Notes: a model not told the origin generated them from the letters alone. 64,000 nucleotides of DNA from a virus (IMGVR_UViG_3300021399_000118:56916-120915), one strand, 5' to 3'. Positions 4,498 through 64,000 are shown, counted from the stretch's first letter. Translations and numbers: made by a program.

Positions 4498-5667
4498 ATG
4501 GCAACTGAAATTATCGCAGGACTTGGAGATGCGGCAGCTGGGTATATTAGCCAAGGAGTTCATAACATTTGGAACTGGGCAGGCGCATCAGGCACAGTAA
4601 CGCTCGCTTCAAATCAATATCCAACAAAAATACAAATTTTTCATAATAATTCAGCTGTTGGTGGAAGTTTATATGATGCTGAGAGCCCCGGCAAAGTGTG
4701 GAATAACGCTTCCGGCACGGAAACGACTCGAGTTGCAAATTTATTTTTAACGAGCAGTGGAAACGCCAGTGAATCTTATCGAATTGGACAATGGTACACA
4801 CAAGTTCACGATTATCCAGTGTCAACCAGTTCAGGAGCCACTCAAGTAAAAATAAATCGTCAATTTGATTATAATGGCGCTGAAGCAACAATCAGTAACG
4901 GAAAAGCTCTCGCAGGAAAAACACTTGCTATATATTTTACAGGCTCTCTCGATGTTATTTTTCAATATTCGGCAAAAATCAAAATCACGTTAGGGACGTT
5001 GTATTCTGTTACGCCAAGTCAAACAACAGGCGGAACTATTAAGGTTAACAATGGCACAAGTGCTGTTTATATGACTGCTGGAGAGCAAGTTACGTTAAGC
5101 GCCACCCCAGCTTCAGGATATGAATTTGTCCGTTGGAACGTCAGCCCTTCTGCAACCATTTCTGGCAACACATTAACTGTTCCAAGCAGCAACGTTACTG
5201 TTTCCGCTACGTTTCAACTAATTCACACACTTAAATGGGCAACTCCAAATTCGTTAACCGTAGCGCAAAATGATTATAAATTGACCGCAAAGTTAACCGG
5301 TCATGCTACAGACACACGAAGCCACACAATAACTTATAAGCTTTATGGATACAACGGTGCAGGACAAAGAATTTTTAACGAAACATTTGGTGCTGAGTCC
5401 AATAACGTCAGAACAGTTCAAATTCCAATAACTGACGCAAACATCGGCGTGCAATATACTTTTAAGGCTTATGCGGTTTGCAGCGCAGACAGTGCCGAAG
5501 GGCCTCCATATACTATTACACCAAAAAATGTCCATAAAACAGTTCAATATCGTGTGAACGGCCAATGGGTTGAGTGTATTCCCTATTACAGAATCAACGA
5601 CAGATGGCAAGAAGTAGAACCATACTATCGAAACGAAGGGATATGGATTCCCTGTTCCAAAACTTAA
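4498..5667 (+). CDS. Putative receptor-binding/tail-tip protein with InlB-B/Flg_new-like repeat
   Basis: VTLSATPASGYEFVRW...VTVSATF repeat; three C-terminal YRxNxxW repeats. Confidence 0.55.
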   Translation: MATEIIAGLGDAAAGYISQGVHNIWNWAGASGTVTLASNQYPTKIQIFHNNSAVGGSLYDAESPGKVWNNASGTETTRVANLFLTSSGNASESYRIGQWYTQVHDYPVSTSSGATQVKINRQFDYNGAEATISNGKALAGKTLAIYFTGSLDVIFQYSAKIKITLGTLYSVTPSQTTGGTIKVNNGTSAVYMTAGEQVTLSATPASGYEFVRWNVSPSATISGNTLTVPSSNVTVSATFQLIHTLKWATPNSLTVAQNDYKLTAKLTGHATDTRSHTITYKLYGYNGAGQRIFNETFGAESNNVRTVQIPITDANIGVQYTFKAYAVCSADSAEGPPYTITPKNVHKTVQYRVNGQWVECIPYYRINDRWQEVEPYYRNEGIWIPCSKT

Positions 5668-5679
5668 ACGAAAGGAGGA

Positions 5680-8600
5680 GTGCCAACTATGCCCATTACA
5701 GACGACAAAGGTCAGAAAAAGTTTCTTGACTCAGACGGGCTAAGTTCAATTTTAATCAAGCTTAAAACCTATATCCAGGATTCCATCCAGACTGAGTCGG
5801 ATGAGACACAGGTCAAGCTTAACAGCAAACTCAACAAACCAAACGAGGCTGGATACGAAGGCCAGGTTTTGAAAGTCGGGCAGGATGGAAATCCTACCTG
5901 GGCGACACAGCAGTCACCTTCCGACAGTCAAGTCAGGGTGGCTGTTTATTCTTATCTGGAAAGCCATCCAACTATTCCGGCAGAAGTCGAAGACGGCTCT
6001 GTTACACAAGCCAAGCTAAGCACCGATCTTCAGCAAAAAATCGGAAACATCGCTACGCTCAGCACAAACGTCACAAATCTTCAAACAAAAGCAGATGAGC
6101 TTGACGATGACTTAACGGCGGCCGAAGAAAGCATTACTACGCTTCAGAGCAAGGTTTCAACACTTGAAACCGGAGCTCAGACATTTACTTCTGATATCAG
6201 CGACATTCAGGACGATATTGCCGGTATTCAGGAAATCATTCCGAACTACAGCACAACCGCCCAGATGACAGCCGCAATCGAAAACTATCTCGAGAGCGAC
6301 ATTGCGGACAGGTTTGATTCCGAAAAGGTCTACCTTGAAGGAGATTACGCTGTTCACGACGGCAAGCTTGTTGTCGCAAAAGAGACTTTGTCTCCCGGAG
6401 AATGGAACGCGGAAAACTGGGAAGAGATCAAGATCGTCGATCTGATCGAGCTTCTCTCGACGGACATTCAGAACATCTCGACCGCGGCTCAGAACCATGT
6501 AAGCATTCTGCCGGAACAAGGTTTGACTTCTGAAGAAAAGACCGCAGCCCGGGCGAATATTGACGCTGCAAGCACGACGGATGTGACAGCAGTACAAGGA
6601 TCTGTCCAGGATTTACAGCAGGATTTAGAGGCGTTTGAGGACGAGGTCTCTGGTCTTATTGAACAAGGCGTTGGCCAGAGCATCCGGTACGATCAAGCTC
6701 AGACGTTGACGGACGAACAGAAGACTCAGGCCAGGGCTAATGCCGGCGCGGCCAGCTCGGCTGAAGTCGCAAACGTCCGGTCTGCAGTCGGAGACATTCA
6801 AACCCAAATTTCCCAGATGGGAGACCGGGTTACCGAAGTTGAAGCTGTTGAAGGCGGCATCCAGGTCACCTATGGAAACGGAGACACATCCAACATCCCG
6901 ATCGAAGCGGGATCAGAACTGAACTCTGTCAGCTACGACGAAAACTACTATCTGCATTTCTACGACAAAAATGGAGATGAGTTGTATGACGGACCGTTCT
7001 TTATTCAGGGTGGAGGCGGCGGAGGCGGCACCTCCGGCGGCATGGCAACCATTACCAGAATCACAGGAACTCCGCTGGACTGTGTGTACCAGATGCCCGC
7101 CTTGATTCGCTTTACTTTCACTGCGACAGACAGCAGCGGAGACGCGGCTGGAAACGGCGTAGGAACCTGGTCTATCGGCGGCGTAACTGTCGCCAGGAAC
7201 ATTCCGATCGTACAAGGCGAGAACAGCTTTGATATTAGTCCCTATCTGAACGCAGGCGAAAACAATGTGCGGCTGAGCGTCAGTGTGGACACAGGCGGAG
7301 ACACCGAAACAATCGCAAGAAAAACGTGGACAGTCAACGCTGTCAACATGCGGTTTAACTGGACTTACAACGACAGCCAAATCAACGAGACCGACTTCCT
7401 TGACAGCTGGACGGTGTACGGCGATATCGCCAAAACGACCCATACCTCCATCGACGGAGAAGAAATCGACACGATTACCACTTCCCGATCCAACGTGACC
7501 CAGAGCATCCGGATTCCCATGCTGACGCACGGGGCGCATCAGGTTGAAAGATGGATTACCGCGACAATCGGAGAAGACGCTCAGAGCACGGAACACCAGT
7601 ATCACGAGATGATCTTTGTGGAAGATGGAGACATGACGCCGATCATTGCCATCTCCATGAAGAACATCAGCATGAATCAATACGATACGATCCGGATCCC
7701 GGTTGTGGTGTACAACCCGGCTTCCCTGCTGGCTGACGCTACGCTTTCCGTGGACGGACAGCCGGCCGGTGAATGGAGCAAGATCGACCGCTCCTTAAGA
7801 TACTGGAACTACACACCATCCACTGCAGGCGATCATACACTGACGATCACCTGTGGAGAAGTATCCAGAAGCATTTCTGTTGAGGTGGAGTCCATTAATC
7901 TGGACGTTGAGGAAGTTGCCGGATATTCCTTCCGGTTTAAGTCTTCTGAGTTCGCCACCAATGAAGCAGTTCGGAACTGGACTTCCAACGGAATCAACGC
8001 CACCTTCTCCGACAACTTCAACTGGATTAACGGCGGCCTGCAAACAGAAACAGACGCAAATGGAAACCTCCAGCAGTATCTGTGCATCAAGGCCGGGGAC
8101 AGTATGACGATCAACCACAAGTTGTTTGCGACTGACCCTAAAGCCAACGGCATGACCTTCAAGATTATCTTTAAGGTTCGGAACTGCCGGAATTACGACG
8201 CACAGATCGGGCACTGCTTCTCCAATGTAGGATTGCAGATGTACGCTCACAACGCTGTCTTCAGCTCCTCCGGAATGTCGGTCAACGTCCCCTACGGCGA
8301 AGACGAATACATCGAGCTGGAGTTCGATGTCTATCCTGCGCCGAGGCAGGAGAACGACGGAAACGTGAGATATATGATGGCCTGGATCGACGGCGTGATT
8401 ACAACCTGCCGGGTGTACGGCGAGACGGACAACTTCGTGCAGCCGGTCGCCACGCAGGAAGGAATCGTGCTTGGGTCTGAGGACTGTGATCTGTATCTCT
8501 ACATGGTGAAAGCCTATCCCATGCTGGACAAGGCCAACAATTTTGACAACCACATTTCCAATTTCATCATGGATGCTCCAAACGCCGCGGAAATGGCGGC

Positions 8601-11600
8601 CCGCTACAGCCGTAATAACATTCTGGACGAAAGCGGAGACATCGACTACACAAAGCTGATGACCCAGAATCCTGACTGCCGTGTATGGCTTTGGGATATG
8701 CCTTATATGACAATCGACAAGGACGACAAGGTCAAGAACTGTGCTTTCAACCAGTTCTGGACAAACGGCGACCGGTACTATCAAATGAGCGGTACCGGTA
8801 CGGTAAAGGTTCAGGGCACGTCTTCTGTGAAATACGTGATGGGCGCAGCCAACACCGACATGAGCTTCAAGACGCTCGAGGACGGATACGGCAACGATCT
8901 TCTCGCGAACGCCGTTGTCAACGAAGATCTGTATGGCAACAACTACTTCCTGGCGGACGAAGAAGACCCGGAACAAGTCCGGGTATTTACAGCGGAACAG
9001 GCCAGAACTTACGCAAAGATTGGCGCGGCTGATCCTTTAGGCCCGGAGTGGGTTGTCATCGAAAGAGATGAAAACCGCAATCCGACCAAATACATTATGG
9101 CAATGGGTATGAAACTGAACGATGATTCCTGCCCCATTACCTATTCCAACACCAAGGTTAACTTCGCATCCTGCGAACAGGTCAACAACATGTGCAACGC
9201 TGTGTGGTATCAGAGATACAATCCGTATCCCAGCCTGACAGCGAGAGACTGCATGGAGTTCAACATGGGCGTGCAGTTCATTAAGGACAGCGGGAATGTT
9301 CCCGACGACAACCACTTTGTGCTGTGGGGCGACAACAAGTATCACATGTACTCCATTGCCAATATGGGCACATCCAAGAAGAACGTTCACCTGTTCCACG
9401 ATCTTTCGAATCCGAAGGAAGTCTGCATCGAAGTTAACGACAACGATAAAGACCAGATGCGGATGGTCAGCGATGATCTTTCCGAAGAGGACTGGAGCGG
9501 CAAGAAGTTCTTCGGGATGCGCTACCCGGACACCAAGAATCCTTCCCAGGAAGTACGGGATGCCTGGCAGCGGCTGGTTACCTGGATGGCGACGAGCAAT
9601 CCCAACGCTCATACGGACGAACAGCTTGCAGCTCCTGAAACCTACGATGTATATACCTTCAAGGGACACGACAGGCCGGGAACACAGGTTCTTCGTGGAA
9701 CGGTTGTGACGCAGTACGCGGGAACATACACCCACGATACGTTTGAACGCCGGATGGCGAAGATGCTGAGCGAGTGCGAAGACTACATGGTGATGGACTC
9801 CTTTGTGTATCACTTTGTGTATCTCGAGCGGCACACCATGGTGGATAACGTTTCCAAGAACAACTTCTGGTCTTCGACAGACCTCCTGCATTGGGATCTG
9901 TCCAAGGCCTACGATATGGACACCTCCGACGGCAACAACAACCAGGGCCAGTTAGTGTTCGACTACGGCCTGGAGTTCGACGACGTCAATCCTACGGATC
10001 TGAAGACCGTTTTCAACGGCAGCGACAGCGTATGGTTTGTGTTTGTCGGAAACCTGTATGAAGCCTGCCGGACCATGTTTACCAACCGGGAAGCCGCAGG
10101 AGCCTGGTCTGCCTCGGCCTACCATAACTTCCTTCTTTCTGAACAGCGGAAAGTTCCGGAAAGGTGCTGGGTGCAATGCTACTGGTACGACTATCTGAGA
10201 ACCTACGAACAGAAGATCTCCTCCGAATGGATGAGCTTCCTGGACGGCGGGCAGAAGACGCACCAGCGTAATCACTACGAAACCTACGAGGAACTTTACG
10301 ATAGTTCCAAGTATCGCGGAATCGCCAGCGTGAGCCAGAACGTAAACCTGCGAGCTTACACTCCCTCTCAATGGGGCGGCGTAGTTGTCGGCAACGGACA
10401 GATTCGCGCAAAGGCATCCACGACCTCGGCTCTGGTTACAACTGTTCCTGAAGGAGAAGTTGTCTACATTACAAAGAAGGCCAACAATACCTGGCGTGAA
10501 GTCACTTACGGAAGCTATACGGGATATATGCTGCTCAGCAATATCTCTGCGCTTGAACCCAAGGGCGAGCTGACCGTCACGATGTACAACAAGATGTACA
10601 TCAGCGTGGATGTAGGTACAACAGCTCTTCCGCCCGTCAAAGCGGAGAGAGGCGTGCCTTATGTCATCACATTTGACCAGGGCGGGCTGACCTCCAACAC
10701 AGTTATTTCCATCAACACGGCTCCCATGATTCAGGCGATCAGCGGACTGGAACAGCTTTATCCTGATACCTGTGTATTCAGCGCGGCTGTGCGGTTAAGG
10801 GAACTGACACTCGGTTCCGCTGCGAAGGGATATGTGAACACCAACCTGAGAAGTCTGGCTCTGGATAATAACGTGATGCTGGAAAGGCTGTATGTGCAGA
10901 ATCAACCTAACGCCAACTCTGTGTTAAATCTGAGCAACTGCCCTTCCCTTGTGTATCTGGACGCCACCGGTTCCGGATTTACCGGATACGAGTTTGCGGA
11001 CGGTGGCCTGCTTGAGACAGCCATTGTCAGCGCTCCTGTTTCCCTGAACCTCCGCAATCTGGCGAATCTGACACCCGGAAACTTCCGGATCGAGGACTAT
11101 TCCAAGCTGAGTTCGCTCTGGCTGGAAAACACGCCCGGCGTGGATTCCCTGGATATGGTTACCCAGGCGATCAATCTTCAGGTTGCAAGAATTATCGGCA
11201 TCGACTGGACACTTTCCAGCGACGCTACGCTGAACAACCTTCTTGATCTGCAGGGCTACGATGAGAACGGTATTACGATCGCTCAGTCGGTTCTTGCCGG
11301 CGACGCATTTGTTCCCAACGTCCGCATCCGGACGCTGAACCTTTATAACACAGCGTGGCCTGATCTTGATGTTACCTACAACAGCATTGTTGAGCAGTAC
11401 GCAGTTCACTTCGTGGACGATGAAGGCAATCCCGTTCCGGACAAACATGGAGAAGATTATGTTCAGTACATCGACAGAGGCCAGGCGGCCTACGATCCTA
11501 TCGAAGCTGAAGAGATCAACACACCCGTCAAGGAAGCGGACGCTCAGTATACCTATACTTTCAGCGGTTGGACCAACCTGGATGGTATTGTTCTGGCGGA

Positions 11601-13326
11601 CAAAACCGTTACAGCTCAGTTTACCTCTACAGTCCGGACCTATACGGTGCGGTGGTTCGCTCAACCTGGCGTGATGCTGAAATCCAAGGAAGTTACCTAC
11701 GGAACTGAAGCGCTTTATGACGACGATGAGACGGTGTTCCCGACAAAGACGGACGAAGAAGGCGCACTTTATTACAACGTATTCTCCGGCTGGGATAAAT
11801 CCACGGGATTTATTACACAGGATATCGATGTTTATGCGGTCTGGGAACGGGCTCCCCTGCCCAACCCCGGCGAGCTTGAGCTGAACGAAATGAACGTTGC
11901 TCAGATTTCCGGCGTAGCCAAATCCTTCAATGTCAACAACTACTGGGATATTGAAGACTATGTGGACATTCCGCTTGGAAGAGACTTCAACTTCTCCAAT
12001 GTGACTTCCGAAGTGCTCGCAACAGACCTCGTTCTTACCAAGACCAATCTTGTGGACACAGGAAAGAAGCTGTTTGCTGCTGATGCTCCCTCCTTTACGC
12101 TGGCGATCGACTACGAGTTCCTCGATGAAACAACCGAAGGAACTCTCGTTGCTTGCTATGGAGCAAGCGGAGCGGAAGGTTTCCGGCTTTGCTACCGGAA
12201 CGGCGCTCCGACCTTAGTCTGGGGCGACAAGAGCATTACGGTTGGCAACTATGGAATGAAGAGAGGTATGCTTGTTCTTCTCCATATTAAAGGCTCCAAC
12301 AACCTTTTTGTTGCATCAAATAACAACCTGAATTATGACAACCTGCTTTACGCAGACAATCTGTTTACAACAGAAATTGTCCGCACTACTTCCACCCAGA
12401 CAGATGCAACACTGGTCTTTGGCGGAACTGCAAGGATTAACGGCAACATCATCTATCCGGCCGCAGGAATGATTAACTGGTGTAAAGTATGGTACGGGCA
12501 TCTTGGCCTGACCGCAATTAAGCAGCTTGCCAACTGGCCCCACGAAACCATCCGGATGAAATACGTCGGGACAAACAGAGTTTATCCATCGGATGGATCC
12601 GGCTATGCAGTCGGAGCTTCCTTTGTTTCCAACTCTCCCCTTTCCGGGCAAAGAAATATGGAACCCAACGCTCCTGGGTGGGACGGAACCAATACTTATG
12701 CCTTCCTGAACAATCGGGTTTTCAAAGCCCTTCCTTATGGATGGCAGCAGATTATCAAATCTGTAAATCTGCCCGTGCTGAAATTTAACGATAACAACAC
12801 GCAGAACCAAACGCTCGTGCCGACCAAGGTTTATATGCCAGCCTATATGGAAATTGATCCGGACGCGACAAATTGGATTTCGGGCGCGTTCAGCTATGAA
12901 GGATCGACATTTGCATATATAACCAGAGAAACGGCCCGCAGAAGCCGGCTTTGGTTTGCCGGGATTACAATTCCTGAGGATGCAGAATATTACTCGACCA
13001 ACGCTGATCCTTCTTCCTCTTCCGTGCTTTATAACGTCAAGGAAGGGGATATCTGGATTCATACCGGAAGCCAGAACAGAGGATACATTTATGTCAGCGC
13101 GGCTACGGCGGCGAAGCATATGTATTTCGGCTATCAGCGGAAAAATGCAGCGGACAATATTCAGGCGGCCGATGGAGGCTTGTGGGTTTCCGCGTCCCAT
13201 GTCTGGACCAGAACACATTATCAGGCCGGAAACAGTCCATACTATTATTCCGCTACTCCAACTGGTACAACCAACTTCATCTACAGCACAGATTATCTTA
13301 CAACTCTTATTATGTTCTCGGTGTAA
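5680..13326 (+). CDS. Giant 2548-aa virion protein: coiled coil, LamG-like, CotH-kinase-like, SH3, LRR, InlB-B repeats, C-terminal DUF6273-like domain
   Basis: VDNVSKNNFW...YDMDT kinase-like motifs; IRAKASTT...WREVTYGSYTGYM SH3b; LxxLxL repeats; YTFSGW repeats; poly-Gly linker. Confidence 0.65.
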   Translation: MPTMPITDDKGQKKFLDSDGLSSILIKLKTYIQDSIQTESDETQVKLNSKLNKPNEAGYEGQVLKVGQDGNPTWATQQSPSDSQVRVAVYSYLESHPTIPAEVEDGSVTQAKLSTDLQQKIGNIATLSTNVTNLQTKADELDDDLTAAEESITTLQSKVSTLETGAQTFTSDISDIQDDIAGIQEIIPNYSTTAQMTAAIENYLESDIADRFDSEKVYLEGDYAVHDGKLVVAKETLSPGEWNAENWEEIKIVDLIELLSTDIQNISTAAQNHVSILPEQGLTSEEKTAARANIDAASTTDVTAVQGSVQDLQQDLEAFEDEVSGLIEQGVGQSIRYDQAQTLTDEQKTQARANAGAASSAEVANVRSAVGDIQTQISQMGDRVTEVEAVEGGIQVTYGNGDTSNIPIEAGSELNSVSYDENYYLHFYDKNGDELYDGPFFIQGGGGGGGTSGGMATITRITGTPLDCVYQMPALIRFTFTATDSSGDAAGNGVGTWSIGGVTVARNIPIVQGENSFDISPYLNAGENNVRLSVSVDTGGDTETIARKTWTVNAVNMRFNWTYNDSQINETDFLDSWTVYGDIAKTTHTSIDGEEIDTITTSRSNVTQSIRIPMLTHGAHQVERWITATIGEDAQSTEHQYHEMIFVEDGDMTPIIAISMKNISMNQYDTIRIPVVVYNPASLLADATLSVDGQPAGEWSKIDRSLRYWNYTPSTAGDHTLTITCGEVSRSISVEVESINLDVEEVAGYSFRFKSSEFATNEAVRNWTSNGINATFSDNFNWINGGLQTETDANGNLQQYLCIKAGDSMTINHKLFATDPKANGMTFKIIFKVRNCRNYDAQIGHCFSNVGLQMYAHNAVFSSSGMSVNVPYGEDEYIELEFDVYPAPRQENDGNVRYMMAWIDGVITTCRVYGETDNFVQPVATQEGIVLGSEDCDLYLYMVKAYPMLDKANNFDNHISNFIMDAPNAAEMAARYSRNNILDESGDIDYTKLMTQNPDCRVWLWDMPYMTIDKDDKVKNCAFNQFWTNGDRYYQMSGTGTVKVQGTSSVKYVMGAANTDMSFKTLEDGYGNDLLANAVVNEDLYGNNYFLADEEDPEQVRVFTAEQARTYAKIGAADPLGPEWVVIERDENRNPTKYIMAMGMKLNDDSCPITYSNTKVNFASCEQVNNMCNAVWYQRYNPYPSLTARDCMEFNMGVQFIKDSGNVPDDNHFVLWGDNKYHMYSIANMGTSKKNVHLFHDLSNPKEVCIEVNDNDKDQMRMVSDDLSEEDWSGKKFFGMRYPDTKNPSQEVRDAWQRLVTWMATSNPNAHTDEQLAAPETYDVYTFKGHDRPGTQVLRGTVVTQYAGTYTHDTFERRMAKMLSECEDYMVMDSFVYHFVYLERHTMVDNVSKNNFWSSTDLLHWDLSKAYDMDTSDGNNNQGQLVFDYGLEFDDVNPTDLKTVFNGSDSVWFVFVGNLYEACRTMFTNREAAGAWSASAYHNFLLSEQRKVPERCWVQCYWYDYLRTYEQKISSEWMSFLDGGQKTHQRNHYETYEELYDSSKYRGIASVSQNVNLRAYTPSQWGGVVVGNGQIRAKASTTSALVTTVPEGEVVYITKKANNTWREVTYGSYTGYMLLSNISALEPKGELTVTMYNKMYISVDVGTTALPPVKAERGVPYVITFDQGGLTSNTVISINTAPMIQAISGLEQLYPDTCVFSAAVRLRELTLGSAAKGYVNTNLRSLALDNNVMLERLYVQNQPNANSVLNLSNCPSLVYLDATGSGFTGYEFADGGLLETAIVSAPVSLNLRNLANLTPGNFRIEDYSKLSSLWLENTPGVDSLDMVTQAINLQVARIIGIDWTLSSDATLNNLLDLQGYDENGITIAQSVLAGDAFVPNVRIRTLNLYNTAWPDLDVTYNSIVEQYAVHFVDDEGNPVPDKHGEDYVQYIDRGQAAYDPIEAEEINTPVKEADAQYTYTFSGWTNLDGIVLADKTVTAQFTSTVRTYTVRWFAQPGVMLKSKEVTYGTEALYDDDETVFPTKTDEEGALYYNVFSGWDKSTGFITQDIDVYAVWERAPLPNPGELELNEMNVAQISGVAKSFNVNNYWDIEDYVDIPLGRDFNFSNVTSEVLATDLVLTKTNLVDTGKKLFAADAPSFTLAIDYEFLDETTEGTLVACYGASGAEGFRLCYRNGAPTLVWGDKSITVGNYGMKRGMLVLLHIKGSNNLFVASNNNLNYDNLLYADNLFTTEIVRTTSTQTDATLVFGGTARINGNIIYPAAGMINWCKVWYGHLGLTAIKQLANWPHETIRMKYVGTNRVYPSDGSGYAVGASFVSNSPLSGQRNMEPNAPGWDGTNTYAFLNNRVFKALPYGWQQIIKSVNLPVLKFNDNNTQNQTLVPTKVYMPAYMEIDPDATNWISGAFSYEGSTFAYITRETARRSRLWFAGITIPEDAEYYSTNADPSSSSVLYNVKEGDIWIHTGSQNRGYIYVSAATAAKHMYFGYQRKNAADNIQAADGGLWVSASHVWTRTHYQAGNSPYYYSATPTGTTNFIYSTDYLTTLIMFSV

Positions 13327-55716: not shown

Positions 55717-58539
55717 TTATGTCTCTTCCGAAGACGAACGCAAGTGCGAAATACGTTTCTCTTTCTCCTCTTTCATTTTCTTCCTGCGCTCTTTGGTATA
55801 TTGATTTTTCAGGTCATGACGATAGTTGTCCTGGCATTCCGGACAGCGCTGCTGCCGGTTGTTTTTCCTCAGGAAAGGTCTGTTGCACTCAATACAGGTA
55901 TAAATTCCCTGAACAGCCTCTCCGCATCCATGGTTCTTTTCCCAGGCAGGAATCCGCATTCCGCATTCGGCGCAGACGGACCCGGTATCAAGATTGTTCT
56001 TGAGAACATGAAGGGCAATGTCTCCGAAGATTTTCCAGAACATCTGCTTGTGTCCGGATCGTTTAACGCCGTTTCCTTCGAAAAGCCTCTTCACCACATG
56101 CGGATAAACTTTTTCAAGAGACCCGTATTTTTCCACACAGTATTCCGAAATATCTTCAGCTGCCATGGCTATGCCGTCCATCAGACGCCGCTCGGACGAA
56201 TAAGTCTGATCCTGAGCGCCCAGCATTCCGGACTTTGTCCGGCTGTCCAAACGGCAGAAATCTTCGGCAATTTCCGGATCGTAATCTTCGCAGGGAGTTT
56301 CCAACAACATTTGCCAGTTGAAAGGAGCCACTCCCGCGTTATTCAGATTCATACGTCCAATGCCGTCAAAAGCCTTACAGATTCTGCTCATGGTGGAGTT
56401 GTTGATATCCGCGTATTTCCTGTTCCGGTTGCTTTCCGTATTCTTCCTTCCATTCTTGGAAAACTGAAAGAAGAACGGCATCCGGCCATTCTTTCCTCCG
56501 GTGGCTTTGCCAATTCTTTTTGCCACCTTTGGGAACTGGGAATAGTGAATGATTTTGCCAGTCTTCGCGGCATCAATCACATCGTTGTTATAGCGGGTAA
56601 GGAAGGCTGCGGCGATTCTGTCCGGGTTTTCCTTATTCCAAAGCCGGGTCAGCATGTTGGATACTTCCCCGATCCCGGAATAATCATGCGCACGTTTCAA
56701 CGCGTGGAACAGAGCCTGGTTGGTAATGGGTTCTGCGGCGGCCTTGTTGGCGTCATAGAACAGCGGAATCACATCAAACTCCTTGACGTTTCTTTCCGCG
56801 ATATCCACAATCAGCGAATCGGCCACCACATTCAGCTGATCCCCATCCCAGTCGCACTGCAGAACATGACTGATCAAATCATGACAGGACATATAAATCC
56901 CGTTTGTATAAAACCAATCATAAATGCTCTGATCCGACACGATTGTACGGACGCAATGTTCCATATAAAGATGAGGACTTCGCAGAATATCTGCTTTTCC
57001 ATTGTAGCGGAAGATCCGGCAGGCAACTTCTCCATTCTTCAGAAGGCCAACCGGATTTTTCACGCCGCAGAACCAGAATTCGCAGGCGGCATACATATCC
57101 GGGATAGCAAAGAGACGCTTGTTCAGGCAGCGAATCTTTCCGGACTTGGCATCCAGAAGCATCCGTTTCCGAATTGCCTTGAGGGATTCAATCGAATAGG
57201 CATCCCGGAGCAGATCCGGATATAAAGAAAGCGCCGTCGCGTACGGCGTTTTCGGTTCTGAAAGATCTTCCCTTTTGCCTGCGCCAAGCGCTTCCAGCAT
57301 CGTATCTTTGTTCCTGGAAATGTTTTCTATCCTTTCGCGCTCTTTCTTCGTGAACTTTTTAATTTCCTCATCCGTAAAGTCCGTCAGCGTCTGAAGCATT
57401 TGATAATTCAGATAAGTATCCGGAATAAACGTCTCTTCGTAGTTGGTTTTACAGAAACAGCATCCGTTTTCCTTGAATTTGATTTTAAATTCTTTCCAGG
57501 ATTTGAAAAGCTTATACAGCTTCACCTGAGAAGAGGTGAAGATTACCTTGATATTCTCCTTGACCAGGTCGTGTTCCAGCCCCCAGACATCCTTGATTAC
57601 GGGAGGAACATTCTTTACCCGGCAGAAGCGAAGATAATCAAAGCTGACCAGCAGGCCCTTGATCGCCGGGCCTCGGACCATTGTGTTGGCCGTGGAGATT
57701 TCCGGAAGCATCATTCCGCAGCCGTCGGTCTGGTCAATCAGAACCGTCTGCAGGCCTGTGGAATAAGTATAGTCCGGCTTGATATACATCATCCGATCCG
57801 TAACCTCCGACTCAAATTCGCCGATTACAATCGTCTGATCGATATCAATCTCCGGCCATTCCTCTGTCGCGGAATTGCACAGCGCAAGATAGGCCATATA
57901 CTTATTGAGGTTCAAAGATCCCCTGTCATTAATCCATTCCCAGGTTAATCCGGCCTGGATGCGGTCTTTAATCCGCTCCCAGACCGGTTCGGAAATACAG
58001 AGAATCTTGTCCCTTCGCAGCTGTCCCGCGCTGGCTGAGAATAAGCGATACTTCCTTTGTTCCACCGATCCATCCGGAAGAAGGAGCGGAAAGAAGAATC
58101 CATCCAGAACAAGCTGTTCCAGCTCATCCAGATTCTTCCATTTGATCACGATTAAGTCGAGAGTTGCTTCGTTCGGCTTCAGCCCCATGGTTCTCGAAAG
58201 TTCGCAGGAAAACTCCGCAATCTTCTTGGAGGTTTTCAGCGTTTTCCAGGTTGCGCCTTTCGCGTCGTCACTTTTATACAACACAGATTTAAGACGAACT
58301 GAACGGGGCTTTCCAGAGTGTGAGCAGATCAGTGTTTCCAGAGCTTTTTTCTTTTCGGATTTCTGATCCAGCAAAGGCTGCTTTTCTTCATCCGGGGCAT
58401 TCTCGGAATACATTTTATCCAGGGTTTTCCCGATACTGACGATTTCCATGTAAAGCTCATATTCCTCGTCTGTAAACAGGTCGTACCCGGACATGGTCAC
58501 CAGCCTGATCTGCTCCTGCAGATACGTTTTAACCGACAT
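55717..58539 (-). CDS. Single-subunit two-barrel RNA polymerase, YonO/eukaryotic-RdRP-like
   Basis: SAGQLR, TDGCGMM, RGPAIKG, RSPH, catalytic QCDWDGD, IDAAKTG; C-terminal CxxC zinc ribbons. Confidence 0.8.
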   Translation of the reverse strand: MSVKTYLQEQIRLVTMSGYDLFTDEEYELYMEIVSIGKTLDKMYSENAPDEEKQPLLDQKSEKKKALETLICSHSGKPRSVRLKSVLYKSDDAKGATWKTLKTSKKIAEFSCELSRTMGLKPNEATLDLIVIKWKNLDELEQLVLDGFFFPLLLPDGSVEQRKYRLFSASAGQLRRDKILCISEPVWERIKDRIQAGLTWEWINDRGSLNLNKYMAYLALCNSATEEWPEIDIDQTIVIGEFESEVTDRMMYIKPDYTYSTGLQTVLIDQTDGCGMMLPEISTANTMVRGPAIKGLLVSFDYLRFCRVKNVPPVIKDVWGLEHDLVKENIKVIFTSSQVKLYKLFKSWKEFKIKFKENGCCFCKTNYEETFIPDTYLNYQMLQTLTDFTDEEIKKFTKKERERIENISRNKDTMLEALGAGKREDLSEPKTPYATALSLYPDLLRDAYSIESLKAIRKRMLLDAKSGKIRCLNKRLFAIPDMYAACEFWFCGVKNPVGLLKNGEVACRIFRYNGKADILRSPHLYMEHCVRTIVSDQSIYDWFYTNGIYMSCHDLISHVLQCDWDGDQLNVVADSLIVDIAERNVKEFDVIPLFYDANKAAAEPITNQALFHALKRAHDYSGIGEVSNMLTRLWNKENPDRIAAAFLTRYNNDVIDAAKTGKIIHYSQFPKVAKRIGKATGGKNGRMPFFFQFSKNGRKNTESNRNRKYADINNSTMSRICKAFDGIGRMNLNNAGVAPFNWQMLLETPCEDYDPEIAEDFCRLDSRTKSGMLGAQDQTYSSERRLMDGIAMAAEDISEYCVEKYGSLEKVYPHVVKRLFEGNGVKRSGHKQMFWKIFGDIALHVLKNNLDTGSVCAECGMRIPAWEKNHGCGEAVQGIYTCIECNRPFLRKNNRQQRCPECQDNYRHDLKNQYTKERRKKMKEEKEKRISHLRSSSEET

Positions 58540-58687: not shown

Positions 58688-58835
58688 CAGGCAATCTAAA
58701 CAGTGTTAACAGACAAGCATCCAGAAACTTGGATTTTAAATTTATTTATAAATTTAAAATCCTTGTTTCTGGATGTTTGTGTTTCTATCCAGTCAAGACT
58801 TCCAATTACATCAAAAGAGCCTTTTTCATTGCCTG
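58688..58835 (-). ncRNA. Candidate retron msr-msd RNA downstream of the RT
   Basis: CAGGCAAT/ATTGCCTG terminal inverted repeat with opposed unpaired Gs (58827, 58696); short hairpins followed by a ~32-bp hairpin at 58713-58780. Confidence 0.6.
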
Positions 58836-59972
58836 TTACATATTATATTGTTTCAGAATATCCGCAAAGGAAACTTTCCATTTCTCTTCACTTCTCTTTA
58901 CGAGATTTGCGAAATACTGCGGCTCCACCATCTTGTAATAGGACAGCTTTCCGTTCAGCTCGAATACGTCGCCTACATCCCAGGGCTTTCCATGCTTGGT
59001 GTCCAGGATGAGGTTTGTCAAAGCCGCCTTGAAATACTTCTTGGTATGATAGCCGACCGTAATATCGTTATCCTTGTTCAGCATCAGTCCCAGATTCCAG
59101 TTGCTTCCGGACGAGGAGCCAAACCGGGTTTTCTCGTCCTTCAGAAGATAAGGAGCATCAAATTCCGCCAGAACTTCCCGAATATGTTTAACCGCCTTTT
59201 CCCAGGGAAACTTTTCCTGGGCTGAAATAAACATATCATCCGCATAGCGGGTATAGACGATTTTCGCGTTTGCGAAATAGTTGAATAAGGCATGGTCGAT
59301 CGGAATCATAAACATGTTCGTCAGCACCGGAGACAGCGCGGTTCCCTGAGGCAGGCCCCCATTTAAGAAACCCAGAGACAGGGCTTTCTCAAGCGCTTCC
59401 CGGCCTTCCGGGACCTTGCAGATTTCTGAAGTCGGATAAATCTTCTCCAGCATCTTCATCGTAAATTCCAGAGTTGTTTTCGGGAAGAAGCCGCTGAAAT
59501 CTGTCTTTAGAAACCATTTGGAATTATTTGCCTGATGTTTCTGCATACATTGTACTGTACTCCGGCCGGGAACATAGGCAAAGGCGGAGGTGTGGTACAG
59601 GACATGCATTTCCTTTGTCAGAATCCGGGCAAGCTCACGGAGAGCAAGCTGCAGATGCGCTTCCGGAGCGTCAATAGGACGCCAGCCGCCTGTCTTCTTC
59701 GGGATTTCGAAGTGATGATACAGCGTTTTTCTGTCCTGTTTGAACAACTCCTCGTAGGTTCTGTTAAAGTTTTCAAGACGCCGGATATAATAATTCACCG
59801 GCGTCTTATCCAGAAGTTCTTTCGTCGGCCACATCTTCCGGGTATAAGTGGCTGTCACTCTTTCATTAGCGGTCGAAGCCAGGAGCTTTTCCATGTTCAC
59901 TTCGTCGAAGAGAACATCCTCCCAGCTGACCTGGTAAGGCTTCCTTACCTGCATTTTTGTTACATAAATCAT
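58836..59972 (-). CDS. Retron-type reverse transcriptase
   Basis: IPKKTGGWRPIDAP, HTSAFAY, TDFSGFF, LPQG, YTRYADD; CMQKH and NLG at the usual NAxxH and VTG positions; no maturase or endonuclease domain. Confidence 0.85.
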   Translation of the reverse strand: MIYVTKMQVRKPYQVSWEDVLFDEVNMEKLLASTANERVTATYTRKMWPTKELLDKTPVNYYIRRLENFNRTYEELFKQDRKTLYHHFEIPKKTGGWRPIDAPEAHLQLALRELARILTKEMHVLYHTSAFAYVPGRSTVQCMQKHQANNSKWFLKTDFSGFFPKTTLEFTMKMLEKIYPTSEICKVPEGREALEKALSLGFLNGGLPQGTALSPVLTNMFMIPIDHALFNYFANAKIVYTRYADDMFISAQEKFPWEKAVKHIREVLAEFDAPYLLKDEKTRFGSSSGSNWNLGLMLNKDNDITVGYHTKKYFKAALTNLILDTKHGKPWDVGDVFELNGKLSYYKMVEPQYFANLVKRSEEKWKVSFADILKQYNM

Positions 59973-60268
59973 TTTTATTATTTAATCTCCAATCTCAGCT
60001 ATCTCTAGATCCTGGATGAGCTGCAGAGTCGTCAGCCCGAAGCCAACGTTTACCCTGCGGATACAGCTGGACTGCAATATACATTTATCGGTAATATTGA
60101 TTTTATTGTATAGCGACATTCTAGTTCTCTCCTGAATGTCGCTTGCAGGTCCCAGTCAGCACGGCCGGCGGCCGCGTCGCCCGCAGGCGCCGCCTCCTCG
60201 GTGAGCGAAATGATCCATTTAATCACATTAAATGAGCCTTAAGTAAATAAGGTCTTGGCATTCAGAGA

Positions 60269-60940
60269 TTAAATTACACAGATATTAAATTCAAAGGGAT
60301 CCGTCAGGATTGCCGTTTCCAGCCGTCCGGACTTCACGAAGTTGATAAAGTTTGTCACACCCACCATGGAAACCAGTCTCACAGTCGGCGCTACGCACAG
60401 CGACACCTTACAGGCAGACACAGGGACGTTCTTTTCCGCCTCCTCGTGGGTAAAATCCATGGTATCCAGGAAGGCCGCGATCTGCTTGTCGTCCGCCCAG
60501 TCGGCCGCATAATGCTGACCTGTTGTGAGGGCGGTACGGAAGTCAAACATGGCCTTGATATTGGCGTTGAACCGGTTTTCCTTGACGATCTTCCGACGGA
60601 GATCAATGTTGTCCACACAAAGGAAGACATAGCCGGAGAGCTTCTGCCCCTGATAGCCGTCGTTATAGATCTTGACTTCCCTGGCAATCTCCGGATTGAT
60701 TTCACAGAGATGATTCAAAGTTGCTTCGGTTTTGAGATGTCCCACATCCGGAAGATTGAACATCTGATTCACCAGGTTATGCTCTTCGACGTGGTCGAAA
60801 TCATAAAGGCTGAATTTGGTCAACCCAAACCGGGCCAGCAGCTCGGCGACCGTAGAGCCGACCGAGCCGCAGCCGATAATATGAATCCGTTCCTTGCAGG
60901 ATTCCGGATCGAAGAATTCAAAGCTTTTAGCTAAATTCAT
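60269..60940 (-). CDS. ThiF/E1-like adenylyltransferase
   Basis: IIGCGSVG, YDFDHVEEHNLVNQ, CVDNIDLR, DFR. Confidence 0.88.
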   Translation of the reverse strand: MNLAKSFEFFDPESCKERIHIIGCGSVGSTVAELLARFGLTKFSLYDFDHVEEHNLVNQMFNLPDVGHLKTEATLNHLCEINPEIAREVKIYNDGYQGQKLSGYVFLCVDNIDLRRKIVKENRFNANIKAMFDFRTALTTGQHYAADWADDKQIAAFLDTMDFTHEEAEKNVPVSACKVSLCVAPTVRLVSMVGVTNFINFVKSGRLETAILTDPFEFNICVI

Positions 60941-60942
60941 TT

Positions 60943-61764
60943 TTAATATTCCTCTTCCCAGTCGTTAATGTCCACAACTTTTTCCTTGGGAACCTTGGCA
61001 AAGTCGTTAGATTTGCCCTGCCAGCCTCCGCCGGAGTAGCCATAGTCGCCGCCATACGCGCCCCAGGATTCGTAATAGGTCTTTCCGGGCTTGTCGTACC
61101 GGGGATAATAGTAGCAGCCGTAGGTCTTTTTCTCCACCAGCTTGGTCGCGCTGTCAATGAAGGCATCCAGGCCGTCAATTTTCACTTCCACGTCGTTGCG
61201 GTCATAGAACACATTGTTGTCCAGGTCGTAGAGATAGGTGTTGATATCGCCCTTCTTATTCCAGATCTGGAAGATATAGAATCCTTCGTGACCGGGCATA
61301 TTTCCCAGGATATCCTCCTGGTTCTGCAGATCGGTGCCGGAGGCGAAGGTGTCGAAGTTCACATGAGAATGGGCCTGGAAATGCATATGGTCCGACTGCT
61401 CATCCGTAAGATTGCAGATGAACTCGACCATATCCTCATCTTTGGTGTCCACCTTGGCCCCGCTGACCTGCTGTTTGCAGACCAGAACATCGTAGACATA
61501 GAACTCTGTCGGGGACTTTCTGTCCACGAGACCGAACCAGCCGACCTCAGAGTCGAAGGAAGCGACCAGCTTCATCATCTTCAGATAGGCCTCCGGCGTA
61601 TAGATGATCTTTATCTTATTTTTCGCCTTCGTGCCGAGATCAGCGGTGAAGGTGAAAGAGGACTTGCCTTCGAAGCACCCCTGGTTGAGATGCTTCATGA
61701 ACTCCCCGGCGAACTTCTCAAAAAGCTTGGTCTTCGTCTCCTCATTCAAATAAATCGGTTTCAT
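60943..61764 (-). CDS. JAB/JAMM metallopeptidase
   Basis: SEVGW plus HSHVNFDTFASGTD (HxH-x7-S-x2-D); Tyr/Gly-rich tail. Confidence 0.8.
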   Translation of the reverse strand: MKPIYLNEETKTKLFEKFAGEFMKHLNQGCFEGKSSFTFTADLGTKAKNKIKIIYTPEAYLKMMKLVASFDSEVGWFGLVDRKSPTEFYVYDVLVCKQQVSGAKVDTKDEDMVEFICNLTDEQSDHMHFQAHSHVNFDTFASGTDLQNQEDILGNMPGHEGFYIFQIWNKKGDINTYLYDLDNNVFYDRNDVEVKIDGLDAFIDSATKLVEKKTYGCYYYPRYDKPGKTYYESWGAYGGDYGYSGGGWQGKSNDFAKVPKEKVVDINDWEEEY

Positions 61765-63179
61765 TCTTCTTTTCCTTTCTGTTCCAGAAGATACGCCAGT
61801 GCGGCTTCCGGAGTCATGTCTTCTCCATCCTTGCGAAGGATCTTGTTCTTGTTAGTGAAAATCCAGCCGAGGAAGGGCCGGAAAGTCTGCTCGGTTTCAT
61901 CCAGATCCACGGACTCAGCAGAGGCGATCGTCATTTCCAGCGCCGCCATCTGTTCTCCCTGAGTCAGCAAATTCTGTACCCGTCCCTTATACTGGCCAAG
62001 GCAGCTGAAGATCTGCAGATGAGGATTTGCCACATAATCCGCATAAAGTGGATCAACACCGGCATAGTCATAACCGGACCTGGTTGTCATGGTGTTGTTG
62101 ACGAAATCCAGCGTATAGGTTCCGACGATCTTCACTTCAAAGATCGGATCCTCGGAGAAGATGCTGTCCAGGAGCAGCTTGCGGCAGGCCTTGTCCTTGA
62201 AGGGCGTATCGCGCAGATCCGTCTTGTAGTTTCCATCGTAGATGGACTCGTTGTCTGAGAACTTCTGATAGGCGTCCACATCGAACCGCTTAAGCGTGGT
62301 AGCCACAATGAAGGAGATCTTGGAATCGTTGATACGGATATGCTGAATGGCAGGATTGGATCCGAGATACTCCACCAGCTCATTTTCCTTCTCGTCGTTC
62401 TGAGAGACGAGCGCCAGGCCTTCGACCCGGATCATGGCTTCGCGGAAGTTCTTCACCGCCTGCTCGTATTCGCGATAAATATTTTCCATATCGCGCTTCC
62501 TGCGGTCCCGATCCTCCCTGGCGGCTTCCATTTCCTTGAGATGGAAGTTTCTGAACATGGCAACCAGGGTGCAATGGAGGAACTCTTCCTTATACTTCTC
62601 AACCAGCTTCGGATAGGTCTTGCGGAAGAGAGTGGAAGTAGGCTTGGACATCGCACTGAGCAGCTCGACTTCCGGATCGTCCTTGCTGAGGGGCTTGGGA
62701 TAGATTCCCGGATAATACAGCGGCAGGAATGACAGGACAAAATGATAGACATCCAGATTGAACGGATAAAGGCGGACGATCGCCATATTGGATTCCTTGC
62801 GATACCAGATGTTGACCGCCTGGATCTGCGGACATTTCTGGCGGACGATCTGCTCCACCGTTTCTTTATTGTAAAAGCCGTACTCGGCTAAAGTTTCGGA
62901 ATCTTTATCTGAAAGAGTACCGGAGCTGCTGACACCGCAGAACCAGACACCAGGATCATTCAGATGGGGCTGGACATATTCCAGCATCTCGGACACAGAG
63001 CAATTCATGATTTTGCCCTTGATGCCTGAATAATCCTTCAGGCGGGGCTTGAAACAGGCAATACCCAGGAGGGAAAGAACCGCATCCGGTTCAGAATCAG
63101 GCCGCAGCATTGTTGCCAGATACTCCGAAGTAACCGGATCAACATACGGAATATTTTCTCTAAACATTTGAACCTCCAA
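61761..63179 (-). CDS. Prokaryotic E2-like protein with N-terminal extension and coiled coil
   Basis: ANPHLQIFSCLG matches the E2 HP(H/N)...CLG signature; located between Ubl and JAB. Confidence 0.6.
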   Translation of the reverse strand: MEVQMFRENIPYVDPVTSEYLATMLRPDSEPDAVLSLLGIACFKPRLKDYSGIKGKIMNCSVSEMLEYVQPHLNDPGVWFCGVSSSGTLSDKDSETLAEYGFYNKETVEQIVRQKCPQIQAVNIWYRKESNMAIVRLYPFNLDVYHFVLSFLPLYYPGIYPKPLSKDDPEVELLSAMSKPTSTLFRKTYPKLVEKYKEEFLHCTLVAMFRNFHLKEMEAAREDRDRRKRDMENIYREYEQAVKNFREAMIRVEGLALVSQNDEKENELVEYLGSNPAIQHIRINDSKISFIVATTLKRFDVDAYQKFSDNESIYDGNYKTDLRDTPFKDKACRKLLLDSIFSEDPIFEVKIVGTYTLDFVNNTMTTRSGYDYAGVDPLYADYVANPHLQIFSCLGQYKGRVQNLLTQGEQMAALEMTIASAESVDLDETEQTFRPFLGWIFTNKNKILRKDGEDMTPEAALAYLLEQKGKEE

Positions 63180-63195
63180 TATAATTTCTGTACCG

Positions 63196-63232
63196 AAAAA
63201 AGAAGGGAAGAACCCGAAAGTCCTTCCCTTCC
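63196..63232 (-). terminator. Terminator/attenuator between Ubl and E2
   Basis: GAAGGGAAG/CTTCCCTTC stem with U tract on the minus strand. Confidence 0.6.
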
Positions 63233-63249
63233 CATCCGGCTAATGAAGA

Positions 63250-63861
63250 TCAGATCACGTTGATATGCGCGTCGATCTCCTCTTCCATCTTGGCGATCTC
63301 CTCAAGCATACCGGGCACTTCGGCCTCAATCTTGTTGAGATCCAGCAGGGCGGAACCGACCGTCTTGCGGACCAGCTCCTTCTTATCTTCGGTTTCCGGA
63401 TCCAGCAGCACGGTCACGGTGGCCTTGCCGTCCGTTCCGACGACGGAGCCGAACACGACGCCGTACTCATTCATGGAACCAGGGCCTTCGCCAACGGCAA
63501 CCTTGAACAGGATCTCATCGGTATCCTCATCCACCAGCTGCAGGGCTTCGGGCATGAACTCGGCAACCCGCTTCCAGTCGTCCAGCTTCACACCGGAAGT
63601 CAGCACAGCCGCAGCACCGGTGATGGTGATGGCAGCGGCGTTATCGATCTTCACGATGGAAGACAGGCGGCAGTCCTTGGTGATGCCCAGGTCGCGGAGG
63701 GACTTATTCATGCCGGCCACATCCAGCTTCACGCCATCCAGGGTGTTGGTGGCGGCTTCGTAGTCGATGTCGAAATGCTGCAGGATGTCCTTGGGAGTCT
63801 TGTTCTCTTCGAAAATGTCAGTCTTCTTGCCGGCGGTGGTGATCACAGTAACCTTAATCAT
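63250..63861 (-). CDS. Ubiquitin-like (beta-grasp) domain fused to a C-terminal domain
   Basis: Start MIKVTVIT after AGGAG; TPKDIL, LDG..L, KSLRDLGI, LSSIVKIDNA; first gene of the E2-JAB-E1 run. Confidence 0.6.
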   Translation of the reverse strand: MIKVTVITTAGKKTDIFEENKTPKDILQHFDIDYEAATNTLDGVKLDVAGMNKSLRDLGITKDCRLSSIVKIDNAAAITITGAAAVLTSGVKLDDWKRVAEFMPEALQLVDEDTDEILFKVAVGEGPGSMNEYGVVFGSVVGTDGKATVTVLLDPETEDKKELVRKTVGSALLDLNKIEAEVPGMLEEIAKMEEEIDAHINVI

Positions 63862-64000
63862 GTGTCTTTTCTCCTTTTTTATCCTTTTTCTGTAATAAAA
63901 TAAACGTTTGGACAGAGCGAGAGTTGCAAGAGTCTCTGTCCGACTCATTTGATCCATATGGAGGGGAGTTGGCTCTGTTCCGGCGAGACAAACCAGAACA

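Follow-up and report, generated by a model that had tools for sequence, protein, structure and literature searches.

The 64,000-nucleotide window analyzed here (IMGVR_UViG_3300021399_000118:56916-120915) comprises the last 64 kb of a 120,915-bp virus record in IMG/VR, that of a gut phage, and carries on its minus strand four co-oriented genes (60269-63861) that probably form a cassette for ubiquitin-like (Ubl) protein conjugation. Gene 1 encodes a Ubl domain, the predicted conjugatable tag (residues 1-75; 63637-63861), which ends in VKIDNA and is followed by a partner domain that cleavage is predicted to set free (residues 76-203 and stop codon; 63250-63636). Gene 2 (468 amino acids [aa]; 61761-63167) encodes a candidate E2, proposed from its fold and a conserved motif. 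Gene 3 (273 aa; 60943-61764) encodes a JAMM/MPN+ metallopeptidase with an invariant metal-site motif, and gene 4 (223 aa; 60269-60940) a minimal E1 adenylation domain of the ThiF/MoeB/UBA5 type, matched by the Pfam ThiF model. A preliminary description of the window had drawn these genes as a complete operon, and all four are present, in the same orientation, where it placed them. However, the conserved unit is larger than four genes, since the block continues into a structured spacer and a retron-type reverse transcriptase (RT) gene in 61 of 65 related loci.

Genes 2 and 3 overlap by 4 nucleotides (nt), genes 3 and 4 are separated by 2 nt, and genes 1 and 2 lie 82 nt apart. The ATG start codon of gene 1 is preceded by a GGAG ribosome-binding site, which gives a product of 203 aa, and the relatives of this protein all begin with MIKV. 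For gene 2, the ATG was taken as the start in preference to an upstream TTG because 32 of 32 relatives begin with MFRE.

The gap between genes 1 and 2 contains a terminator-like hairpin with a T-run (63194-63233, minus strand), which consists of a 15-bp stem at 63233-63200 with a 4-nt loop, followed by TTTTTT. Its predicted folding energy was -31.9 kcal/mol (z = -4.5), and none of 200 shuffled sequences folded equally well. Of 51 distinct loci, nearly all have a GC-rich hairpin directly 3' of the tag or fusion gene, although its sequence is unrelated from locus to locus. The terminator-like hairpin noticed earlier after gene 1 is thus upheld by folding and by its conserved position, and the retention of that position despite unrelated sequences supports a conserved transcriptional break between the tag/partner and the enzymes. 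In a metatranscriptome library from the source sample, a 943-nt contig covered gene 1 and ended at 63235, while two contigs of about 200 nt lay in gene 2 and none beyond; a second RNA run yielded nothing. These contigs are a weak hint, and they were not counted as evidence for excess production of the tag because contigs give neither RNA levels nor ends and the library may hold DNA. A subthreshold Rfam match to sbrA proved to be the terminator hairpin itself. In loci in which tag and partner are separate genes, a tRNA-Leu(UAA) gene lies between the tag-gene hairpin and the E2-like gene (L047, 7271-7355; L063, 7271-7356; L043, 7282-7368; L015, 7773-7858; L031, 7291-7377); none is present in the fused type to which the window belongs.

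The 65 loci were gathered from IMG/VR with a profile of the N-terminal domain of gene 1, and every open reading frame (ORF) in them was typed with purpose-built hidden Markov models. Many of them come from one large sample, and each protein family is represented by 51 to 64 distinct sequences. The order tag/partner, gene 2, JAB, E1 was kept in all informative loci, and such a recurrent arrangement lies far beyond chance. Carriage by a phage, as the preliminary description had claimed, was confirmed by two complete phage genomes (121 and 148 kb) that have direct terminal repeats and hold the block in single copy. Relatives were found in sheep, goat, and bovine gut metagenomes. Of the 44 differences from a sheep-gut relative listed for these two genes (3 and 4), 41 fell at third codon positions, and both genes are therefore under purifying selection. 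A scan of 185,579 species genomes with the JAB family recovered four contigs of metagenome-assembled genomes (MAGs), and the block order was present, with the RT gene, in three Oscillospirales MAG contigs (Oscillospiraceae, Acutalibacteraceae, and Ruminococcus MAGs), a hint that hosts may belong to this group.

Ubiquitin-fold tag and its partner domain

An AlphaFold2 (AF2) model of gene 1 built with 150 relatives had a mean predicted local distance difference test (pLDDT) score of 96.2. Residues 1 to 69 of the tag are arranged as strand-strand-helix-strand-strand-short helix-strand. Foldseek matched the tag to ubiquitin and SUMO chains with a probability of 1.00 (target template-modeling [TM] score, 0.62 to 0.68; root mean square deviation, 2.5 to 2.8 Å), and the best 50 rows returned by VIA-align all had the ubiquitin fold (ubiquitin, SUMO, UBX, MoaD, and Bil Ubl; Z scores, 8 to 9.2). 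These included a MoaD chain (6jc0; Z = 8.9) and the Bil Ubl of a bacterial E1-E2-Ubl complex (8tyz_B; Z = 8.7 over 74 residues at 2.3 Å). On the strength of both sets of structural matches, the earlier claim of a beta-grasp N-terminal domain ending in VKIDNA holds.

Tag and partner are encoded by separate genes in 53 of the 65 loci, with the partner gene upstream in 51 of the 53, where both were detected, and are fused in the remaining 12. As the gene order is swapped between the split and fused forms, the fusion is not a simple read-through product. The tag domain of gene 1 ends in SSIVKIDNA, and the junction in the 12 fused loci reads VK[IAMT]DNA-A. Of the free tags, 45 stop at DNA, six at DNAA, one carries three extra residues, and one ends in KAD. 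One split locus (L003) encodes a free 132-aa partner followed by an 84-aa homologue of the N-terminal domain (hhalign, 97.9%) that stops at VKNVDNA. The DNA|A boundary, which had originally been a guess, therefore coincides with the natural C terminus of the tag in most relatives. The tag has no Gly or Gly-Gly end after the last strand, its tail being K-x-D-N-A. The Asn at position -2 occurs in 77% of aligned sequences, and D-N-A is invariant in another sequence set.

A 54-kb metagenome contig (L007) encodes paralogues of tag and partner with no enzyme gene within 6 kb, and these paralogues also lack the KxDNA tail. As one anecdote drawn from sequence, this favors the tail as the substrate of the enzymes. 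The genes concerned (6001-6787 and 11200-11865) are one for a free partner, one for a tag-like protein, and a second one for a tag-partner fusion, and their neighbors are GmrSD-like, Cas4-like, and nucleoside deoxyribosyltransferase genes.

The partner was modeled as a beta-rich body followed by a 40-residue C-terminal helix. An exhaustive HMMER search with gene 1 recovered 935 related cluster representatives, many of which are about 130 aa long and align from residue 76 onward, and the partner is thus a protein family in its own right. Its gene always adjoins the Ubl gene, in either order. The C-terminal domain of about 128 aa whose release was proposed earlier does have this length (128 aa) and is free in most relatives; it is an obligate member of the system and more than a by-product of cleavage. 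The most conserved residues are G82, S89, P104, F119, A147, and E179. The partner alignment contains no conserved His and no catalytic-looking motif, and the partner matched nothing in Pfam (including DUF6527), PHROG, or the PDB. A search of the ESM Atlas for fold neighbors returned its own family only (TM score, 0.5 to 0.6), and the VIA-align rows were taken up by the ubiquitin domain. From these sequence features, we regard the partner as a substrate, an adaptor, or a binding partner rather than an enzyme.

Enzyme genes

Gene 4 matched Pfam ThiF with an E value of 1.3e-22 (80.6 bits; cutoff, 28.1 bits), and its PDB sequence matches included UBA5, MoeB, MccB (1e-7), and Cap2 (7tsx; 2e-7). It also matched the PADLOC models for the E1-E2 protein (Cap2) of the cyclic oligonucleotide-based antiphage signaling system (CBASS) at 5e-18. 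The GxGxxG motif (G23, G25, and G28), D47, K70, D110, R135, and C177 (in PVSAC) are invariant in 51 distinct sequences. With a ThiF match above the threshold and invariant adenylation residues, the original identification of a ThiF/E1 protein was corroborated. An E1 of the same family (52% identical) is encoded by an unannotated phage from human feces (MT835544.1). More distant ThiF-like genes (27 to 29% identity) were found in Xanthomonas and Erwinia jumbo phages (OQ603359.1 and PV764601-3) and in the crAss-like phage cr126_1 (NC_055884.1), where they are annotated as "thiamine biosynthesis protein."

Gene 3 contains HFQAHSHVNFDTFASGTD, which fits HxHx7Sx2D, and the complete JAMM site (E73, H132-x-H134-x7-S142-x2-D145) is invariant in 60 distinct sequences, in agreement with the JAMM peptidase first proposed here. 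The window protein had no Pfam match, and 5 of 36 relatives weakly matched Prok-JAB (PF14464; E of at least 0.005). A weak Rpn11-like match was obtained against the PDB. The tail of the protein (residues ~205 to 273; 60943-61150, minus strand) is a Tyr/Gly-rich, low-complexity segment (YGCYYYPRYDKPGKTYYESWGAYGGDYGYSGGGW...) of varying length, the relatives being 244 to 338 aa long. Single-sequence and profile searches of the PDB with genes 1 to 3 returned no E2, no clear JAB, and no Ubl; the apparent matches in one of these searches proved to be His-tag and TEV-site artifacts (ENLYFQ/HHHH). A family-wide model scan gave a weak Prok-JAB match for gene 3, nothing for gene 2, and a weak DUF2604/BAT match for gene 1.

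The MccB match of gene 4, the retained Asn at position -2, and the one to three extra residues beyond DNA on some free tags would also fit a chemistry like that of MccB, in which the last Ala or Ala residues are removed and Asn74 is adenylated or cyclized, giving a nucleotide-modified or succinimide-ended protein. However, the 45 free tags that end at Ala would each have to be trimmed to Asn. The gene 4 protein (223 aa, compared to ~350 aa) furthermore lacks the N-terminal peptide clamp of MccB, and the presence of an E2-like Cys protein would go unexplained. We therefore regard this outcome as highly improbable.

Gene 2 contains NPHLQIFSCLG, an instance of the motif N-[PT]-H-x5-C-x-G in which N381, H383, C389, and G391 never vary among 64 distinct sequences, some of them from relatives with about 20% identity. 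The AF2 model (pLDDT, 89.8) comprises an alpha/beta N-terminal domain, a 76-residue helix, and a UBC/RWD-like C-terminal alpha/beta domain with an insert of about 45 residues between strands 2 and 3. The motif lies between the last strand of this domain and the next helix and, allowing for the insert, its modeled position would be about that of the active-site Cys of an E2. When residues 257 to 420 were compared by VIA-align, independently of Foldseek, four RWD domains came out on top, namely, those of Knl1 (4nf9; Z = 7.5 over 91 residues at 3.0 Å), the SEA complex (8adl; Z = 7.1), Knl1 in the KMN network (Z = 7.0), and Listerin (9gy4; Z = 6.8). Among true E2s, taken from a Foldseek list, UbcH8 scored 5.7 (120 of 150 residues), UBE2L6 scored 4.9, and Ubc13/Uev scored 4.4. 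Structural neighbors in the ESM Atlas were RWD/IBR proteins, a CBASS E2 cluster, and Prok-E2_A (TM score, 0.46 to 0.49), and a feature match pointed to a phage cluster in which 39% of the members carry Prok-E2_D.

Based on these models, gene 2 likely has the E2 superfold, and E2 catalysis is plausible. The E2-like protein with an NPH...CLG motif in the preliminary description is borne out in its motif and probably in its fold; a match to a sequence model was not obtained. Neither gene 2 nor any of 32 relatives matched Pfam, including UQ_con and Prok-E2_A to Prok-E2_E, and there was no PDB sequence match. A tblastn search of GenBank phages gave no match, a scan of the 185,579 species genomes with the family pattern found none, and a search for short relatives of the E2-like domain likewise found none. 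With the full-length model, Foldseek found nothing in the PDB and, in BFVD, a single uncharacterized Siphoviridae homologue. Residues ~20 to 160 of gene 2 (62700-63110, minus strand) weakly resemble the molybdopterin-binding fold of MogA/MoaB/Cnx1G (Z = 4.7 to 5.2 over 111 to 132 aligned residues; Foldseek probability, 0.51), a likeness between models that may be that of a generic alpha/beta sandwich only.

The higher scores of noncatalytic RWD domains than of true E2s leave some room for conjugation without an E2, as in the archaeal SAMP/UbaA and Urm1 systems. The 468-aa protein would then be a noncatalytic RWD/UEV-like scaffold, adaptor, or E3-like factor, its conserved Cys would serve another role, and the E1 and JAMM enzymes would act on the tag. 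The failure of gene 2 to match any E2 sequence model points the same way, and the large additional N-terminal domain and 76-residue helix are typical of scaffolds. In contrast, invariance of N381, H383, C389, and G391 at such low identities argues against a noncatalytic role, as does their location at the position of the E2 active-site loop, between the beta-meander and the following helix. Gene 2 is also translationally coupled to the JAB and E1 genes. On balance, we consider an E2-less pathway unlikely.

A sulfur-carrier or small-molecule pathway of the ThiS/MoaD/CysO/QbsE type, in which an acyl-adenylate or thiocarboxylate is made and the JAMM enzyme trims the precursor only, was also considered. 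Operons of a Ubl, an E1, and a JAB with precursor trimming do exist for sulfur transfer (Iyer et al. 2006, PMC1779556), and the nearest sequence models of gene 4 are ThiF and MoeB. The MoaD chain among the fold matches of the tag and the resemblance of the gene 2 N-terminal domain to MogA/MoaB/Cnx1G would be in line with such a pathway. However, the tag ends in D-N-A instead of Gly-Gly, and the conserved block includes no sulfurtransferase, rhodanese, cysteine desulfurase, cofactor, or biosynthetic gene. As the block in addition always includes a UBC/RWD-like protein whose Cys is invariant, a sulfur-carrier function appears very unlikely.

Proposed pathway and relation to known systems

Our preferred interpretation, which we consider probable, is a phage-encoded Ubl conjugation pathway organized as a two-tier operon. 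The first tier, ahead of a leaky terminator, would supply the stoichiometric parts as one preprotein (75-residue tag plus 128-residue partner), and the second tier would supply three translationally coupled enzymes. Cleavage by the JAMM enzyme after K-I-D-N-A75 would free the partner and expose the Ala C terminus of the tag. The minimal E1 would then adenylate the Ala75 carboxylate and probably transfer the tag onto Cys177 as a thioester, from which it would pass to Cys389 in the UBC/RWD-like domain of gene 2, with N-P-H taking the place of the HPN flap of E2 enzymes. The tag would finally be attached to target lysines; candidate targets are the partner, the adjacent RT, and host or rival-phage proteins, and the choice of host or competitor proteins is pure speculation. 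The JAMM enzyme may also reverse the modification. There is precedent for individual steps: the JAB domain of BubCD cuts the BubAB Ubl fusion directly after the last Ubl residue (PMC11601596), BilC preprocesses BilA (10.1101/2023.09.26.559546), and Cap2 conjugates substrates with a C-terminal Gly or Ala (PMC10097602). The fold of the tag, the catalytic motifs, the domain boundary, the gene linkage, and the phage origin are directly supported, and the E2-type fold is likely.

Several points weigh against this interpretation. All evidence is computational, and every chemical step, as well as the biological role, is inferred rather than drawn from experiment. The E2 assignment relies on fold and motif only, with middling Z scores, all below 8 and taken from the full-length model. 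The N-P-H-x5-C motif differs from the canonical H-P-N-x7-8-C in both order and spacing. Searches of the Pfam, NCBIfam, PADLOC, and PHROG models gave no match for the window proteins of genes 1 to 3. No domain for docking an E2, whether of the ubiquitin fold or of another type, is present in the E1, and sequence position is the sole basis for placing Cys177 in the crossover loop. The partner alignment has no conserved lysine that would mark the domain as an acceptor. Finally, we know of no beta-grasp modifier with an Ala end preceded by Asp-Asn.

In its parts list the cassette is Bil-like, and in its precursor logic it is type I Bub-like; it is a member of neither system, nor of CBASS. With Bil (BilABCD) it shares an organization in four separate parts (in Bil, a Ubl, an E2-type Cys enzyme, a JAB that preprocesses the Ubl, and an E1), and the Bil Ubl is a fold match to the tag. 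However, Bil is bacterial and antiphage, whereas the present system is phage borne, with a single-domain E1, an E2-like protein with extra domains, an Ala-ended tag, an obligate 128-aa partner, and a linked RT. No NCBIfam or PADLOC sequence model links the phage system to Bil. In type I Bub (BubAB plus BubCD; family 6E/DUF6527), a Ubl is fused N terminally to a partner of about 130 aa, and the operon JAB cuts right after the last Ubl residue (PMC11601596), a step that is predicted here from the boundary shared by split and fused forms. In contrast to the partner described here, which lacks a DUF6527 match and a conserved His, the Bub partner is an E2-like DUF6527 protein that forms Ser/His oxyesters. 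In Bub, a single protein that lacks a catalytic Cys combines JAB and E1, and cleavage occurs after a Gly, whereas the phage JAB and E1 are encoded by separate genes, an invariant Cys is present in both E1 and gene 2, and the predicted cut site is Ala.

Type II CBASS likewise combines an E1/E2-type enzyme with a JAB that acts on a Gly or Ala C terminus (PMC10097602), and the E1 domain of gene 4 matches the Cap2 models, as described above. However, Cap2 is an E2-E1 fusion, in contrast to the separate genes found here, and CBASS conjugates its CD-NTase rather than a beta-grasp tag; no CD-NTase or effector was present among the block genes. Tail proteins I and K of the lambda/T1 type offer another example of a phage Ubl in fusion with a C-terminal domain, from which a JAB is predicted to free it (PMC1779556). 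Those proteins belong to a tail assembly module, have a Gly end, and lack E1 and E2, whereas the present block lies in an early/replication region and has an E1 and a candidate E2. Regarding precursor organization, the tag-partner fusion also resembles eukaryotic ubiquitin precursors. In these, ubiquitin is N-terminal to ribosomal proteins, both are made in equal amounts, and a deubiquitinase cuts between them. The eukaryotic precursors differ in their Gly-Gly end and in being processed mostly by cysteine-protease deubiquitinases, and their partner is not homologous.

To date, bacterial ubiquitin-like conjugation (CBASS Cap2/3, Bil, and Bub) has been studied as antiphage immunity. Here, the full set of genes occupies a conserved early region throughout a lineage of 100- to 150-kb gut and rumen phages, which raises the question of what a phage gains from protein tagging, with counterdefense, control of the RT, and, if the phage is temperate, the exclusion of rival phages among the options. 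The known chemistry would be widened by a ubiquitin-fold tag with an Asp-Asn-Ala reactive end, a minimal E1, and a candidate E2 from a sequence family without known relatives. As the natural split and fused forms share their boundary, the processing site can be predicted, and the expected tryptic remnant I-D-N-A (approximately +413.19 Da on target lysines by our own calculation) is directly testable.

Linked reverse transcriptase and genome context

The RT gene (58836-59972, minus strand) is the conserved downstream neighbor of the E1 gene, and its product matched RVT_1 (4.2e-23) and PADLOC RT_II-A (6.9e-48). Against the retron St85 RT model it scored 174.6 bits, below the cutoff of 235. The two genes are separated by a structured 296-nt spacer (59973-60268, minus strand; RNA fold z = -2.9), a candidate retron-type RNA, and the corresponding spacer in relatives measures 209 to 598 nt. 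An Rfam scan returned no retron match and only subthreshold matches. Those resembling microRNA (miRNA) precursors were traced to a long near-perfect hairpin downstream of the RT (58716-58777).

Apart from the spacer and from the near-constant presence of the RT in the phage loci, the RT also follows the enzyme genes in the MAG contigs, as it does in a distant variant from Bacilli (JAB-E1-RT). Three loci (L038, 7330-7980; L040; and L041) have an additional gene between those for the tag and the E2-like protein, coding for an RNase H1 that includes a hybrid-binding domain (Cauli_VI, 2.7e-21; RNase_H, 2.5e-10), and the occurrence of an RNase H beside an RT-linked block may not be coincidence. Together with the pairing of tag and partner apart from enzymes in L007, these observations lend some weight to an RT-centered system, in which the tag-partner pair would be a noncovalent RT accessory and the enzymes would have a regulatory role, e.g., by tagging the RT or the partner. 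However, synteny within one phage lineage may persist without functional coupling, and this possibility overlaps the conjugation pathway proposed above instead of excluding it. None of the 13 retron types classified by Mestre et al. (2020) is known to use E1/E2/JAB effectors. An RT-centered function is possible, though less likely than not.

We tentatively suggest, at a similarly low level of confidence, that the tagging kit and the retron-type RT could form one phage-borne machine, in which the RT and its template RNAs would sense or mark a nucleic acid event. The Ala-ended tag might then be ligated to one defined target, which could be the partner, the RT, or a protein of host immunity or of a rival phage. 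If true, a reverse transcriptase system would for the first time have a ubiquitin-like effector arm, and a ubiquitin-type pathway would for the first time serve a phage's own ends rather than act against phage. A full-text literature search turned up no publication describing a Ubl-E2-JAB-E1 block in a phage or any connection of such a block with an RT.

Other proteins encoded in the window include a phage DNA polymerase (phrog_405; 1.8e-169), a primase-helicase (phrog_239), an integrase (phrog_1), and a 2,548-aa phage protein. The last 143 bp of the record (63858-64000) repeat its first 143 bp (L002; 1-143) at 99% identity, and because its ends are shared, the genome is probably circularly permuted or complete, despite its classification as linear. 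Small acidic ORFs and a gene resembling that of a single-stranded DNA-binding protein (SSB) lie upstream of gene 1, beyond the record junction and on the same strand, and the block is situated in the early/replication region of the phage. In L003, the tag gene and the E2-like gene are set apart by an inserted gene for a Band_7/SPFH protein (4836-5711). In fused-type loci only, the RT gene is followed by the gene for a 940-aa protein with a DWDGD motif (55717-58539, minus strand, in the window). Matches to PF05183, a eukaryote-type RNA-dependent RNA polymerase family (5.2e-10), and to phrog_8308 (6.5e-171) identify it as a single-subunit RNA polymerase like YonO and QDE-1.

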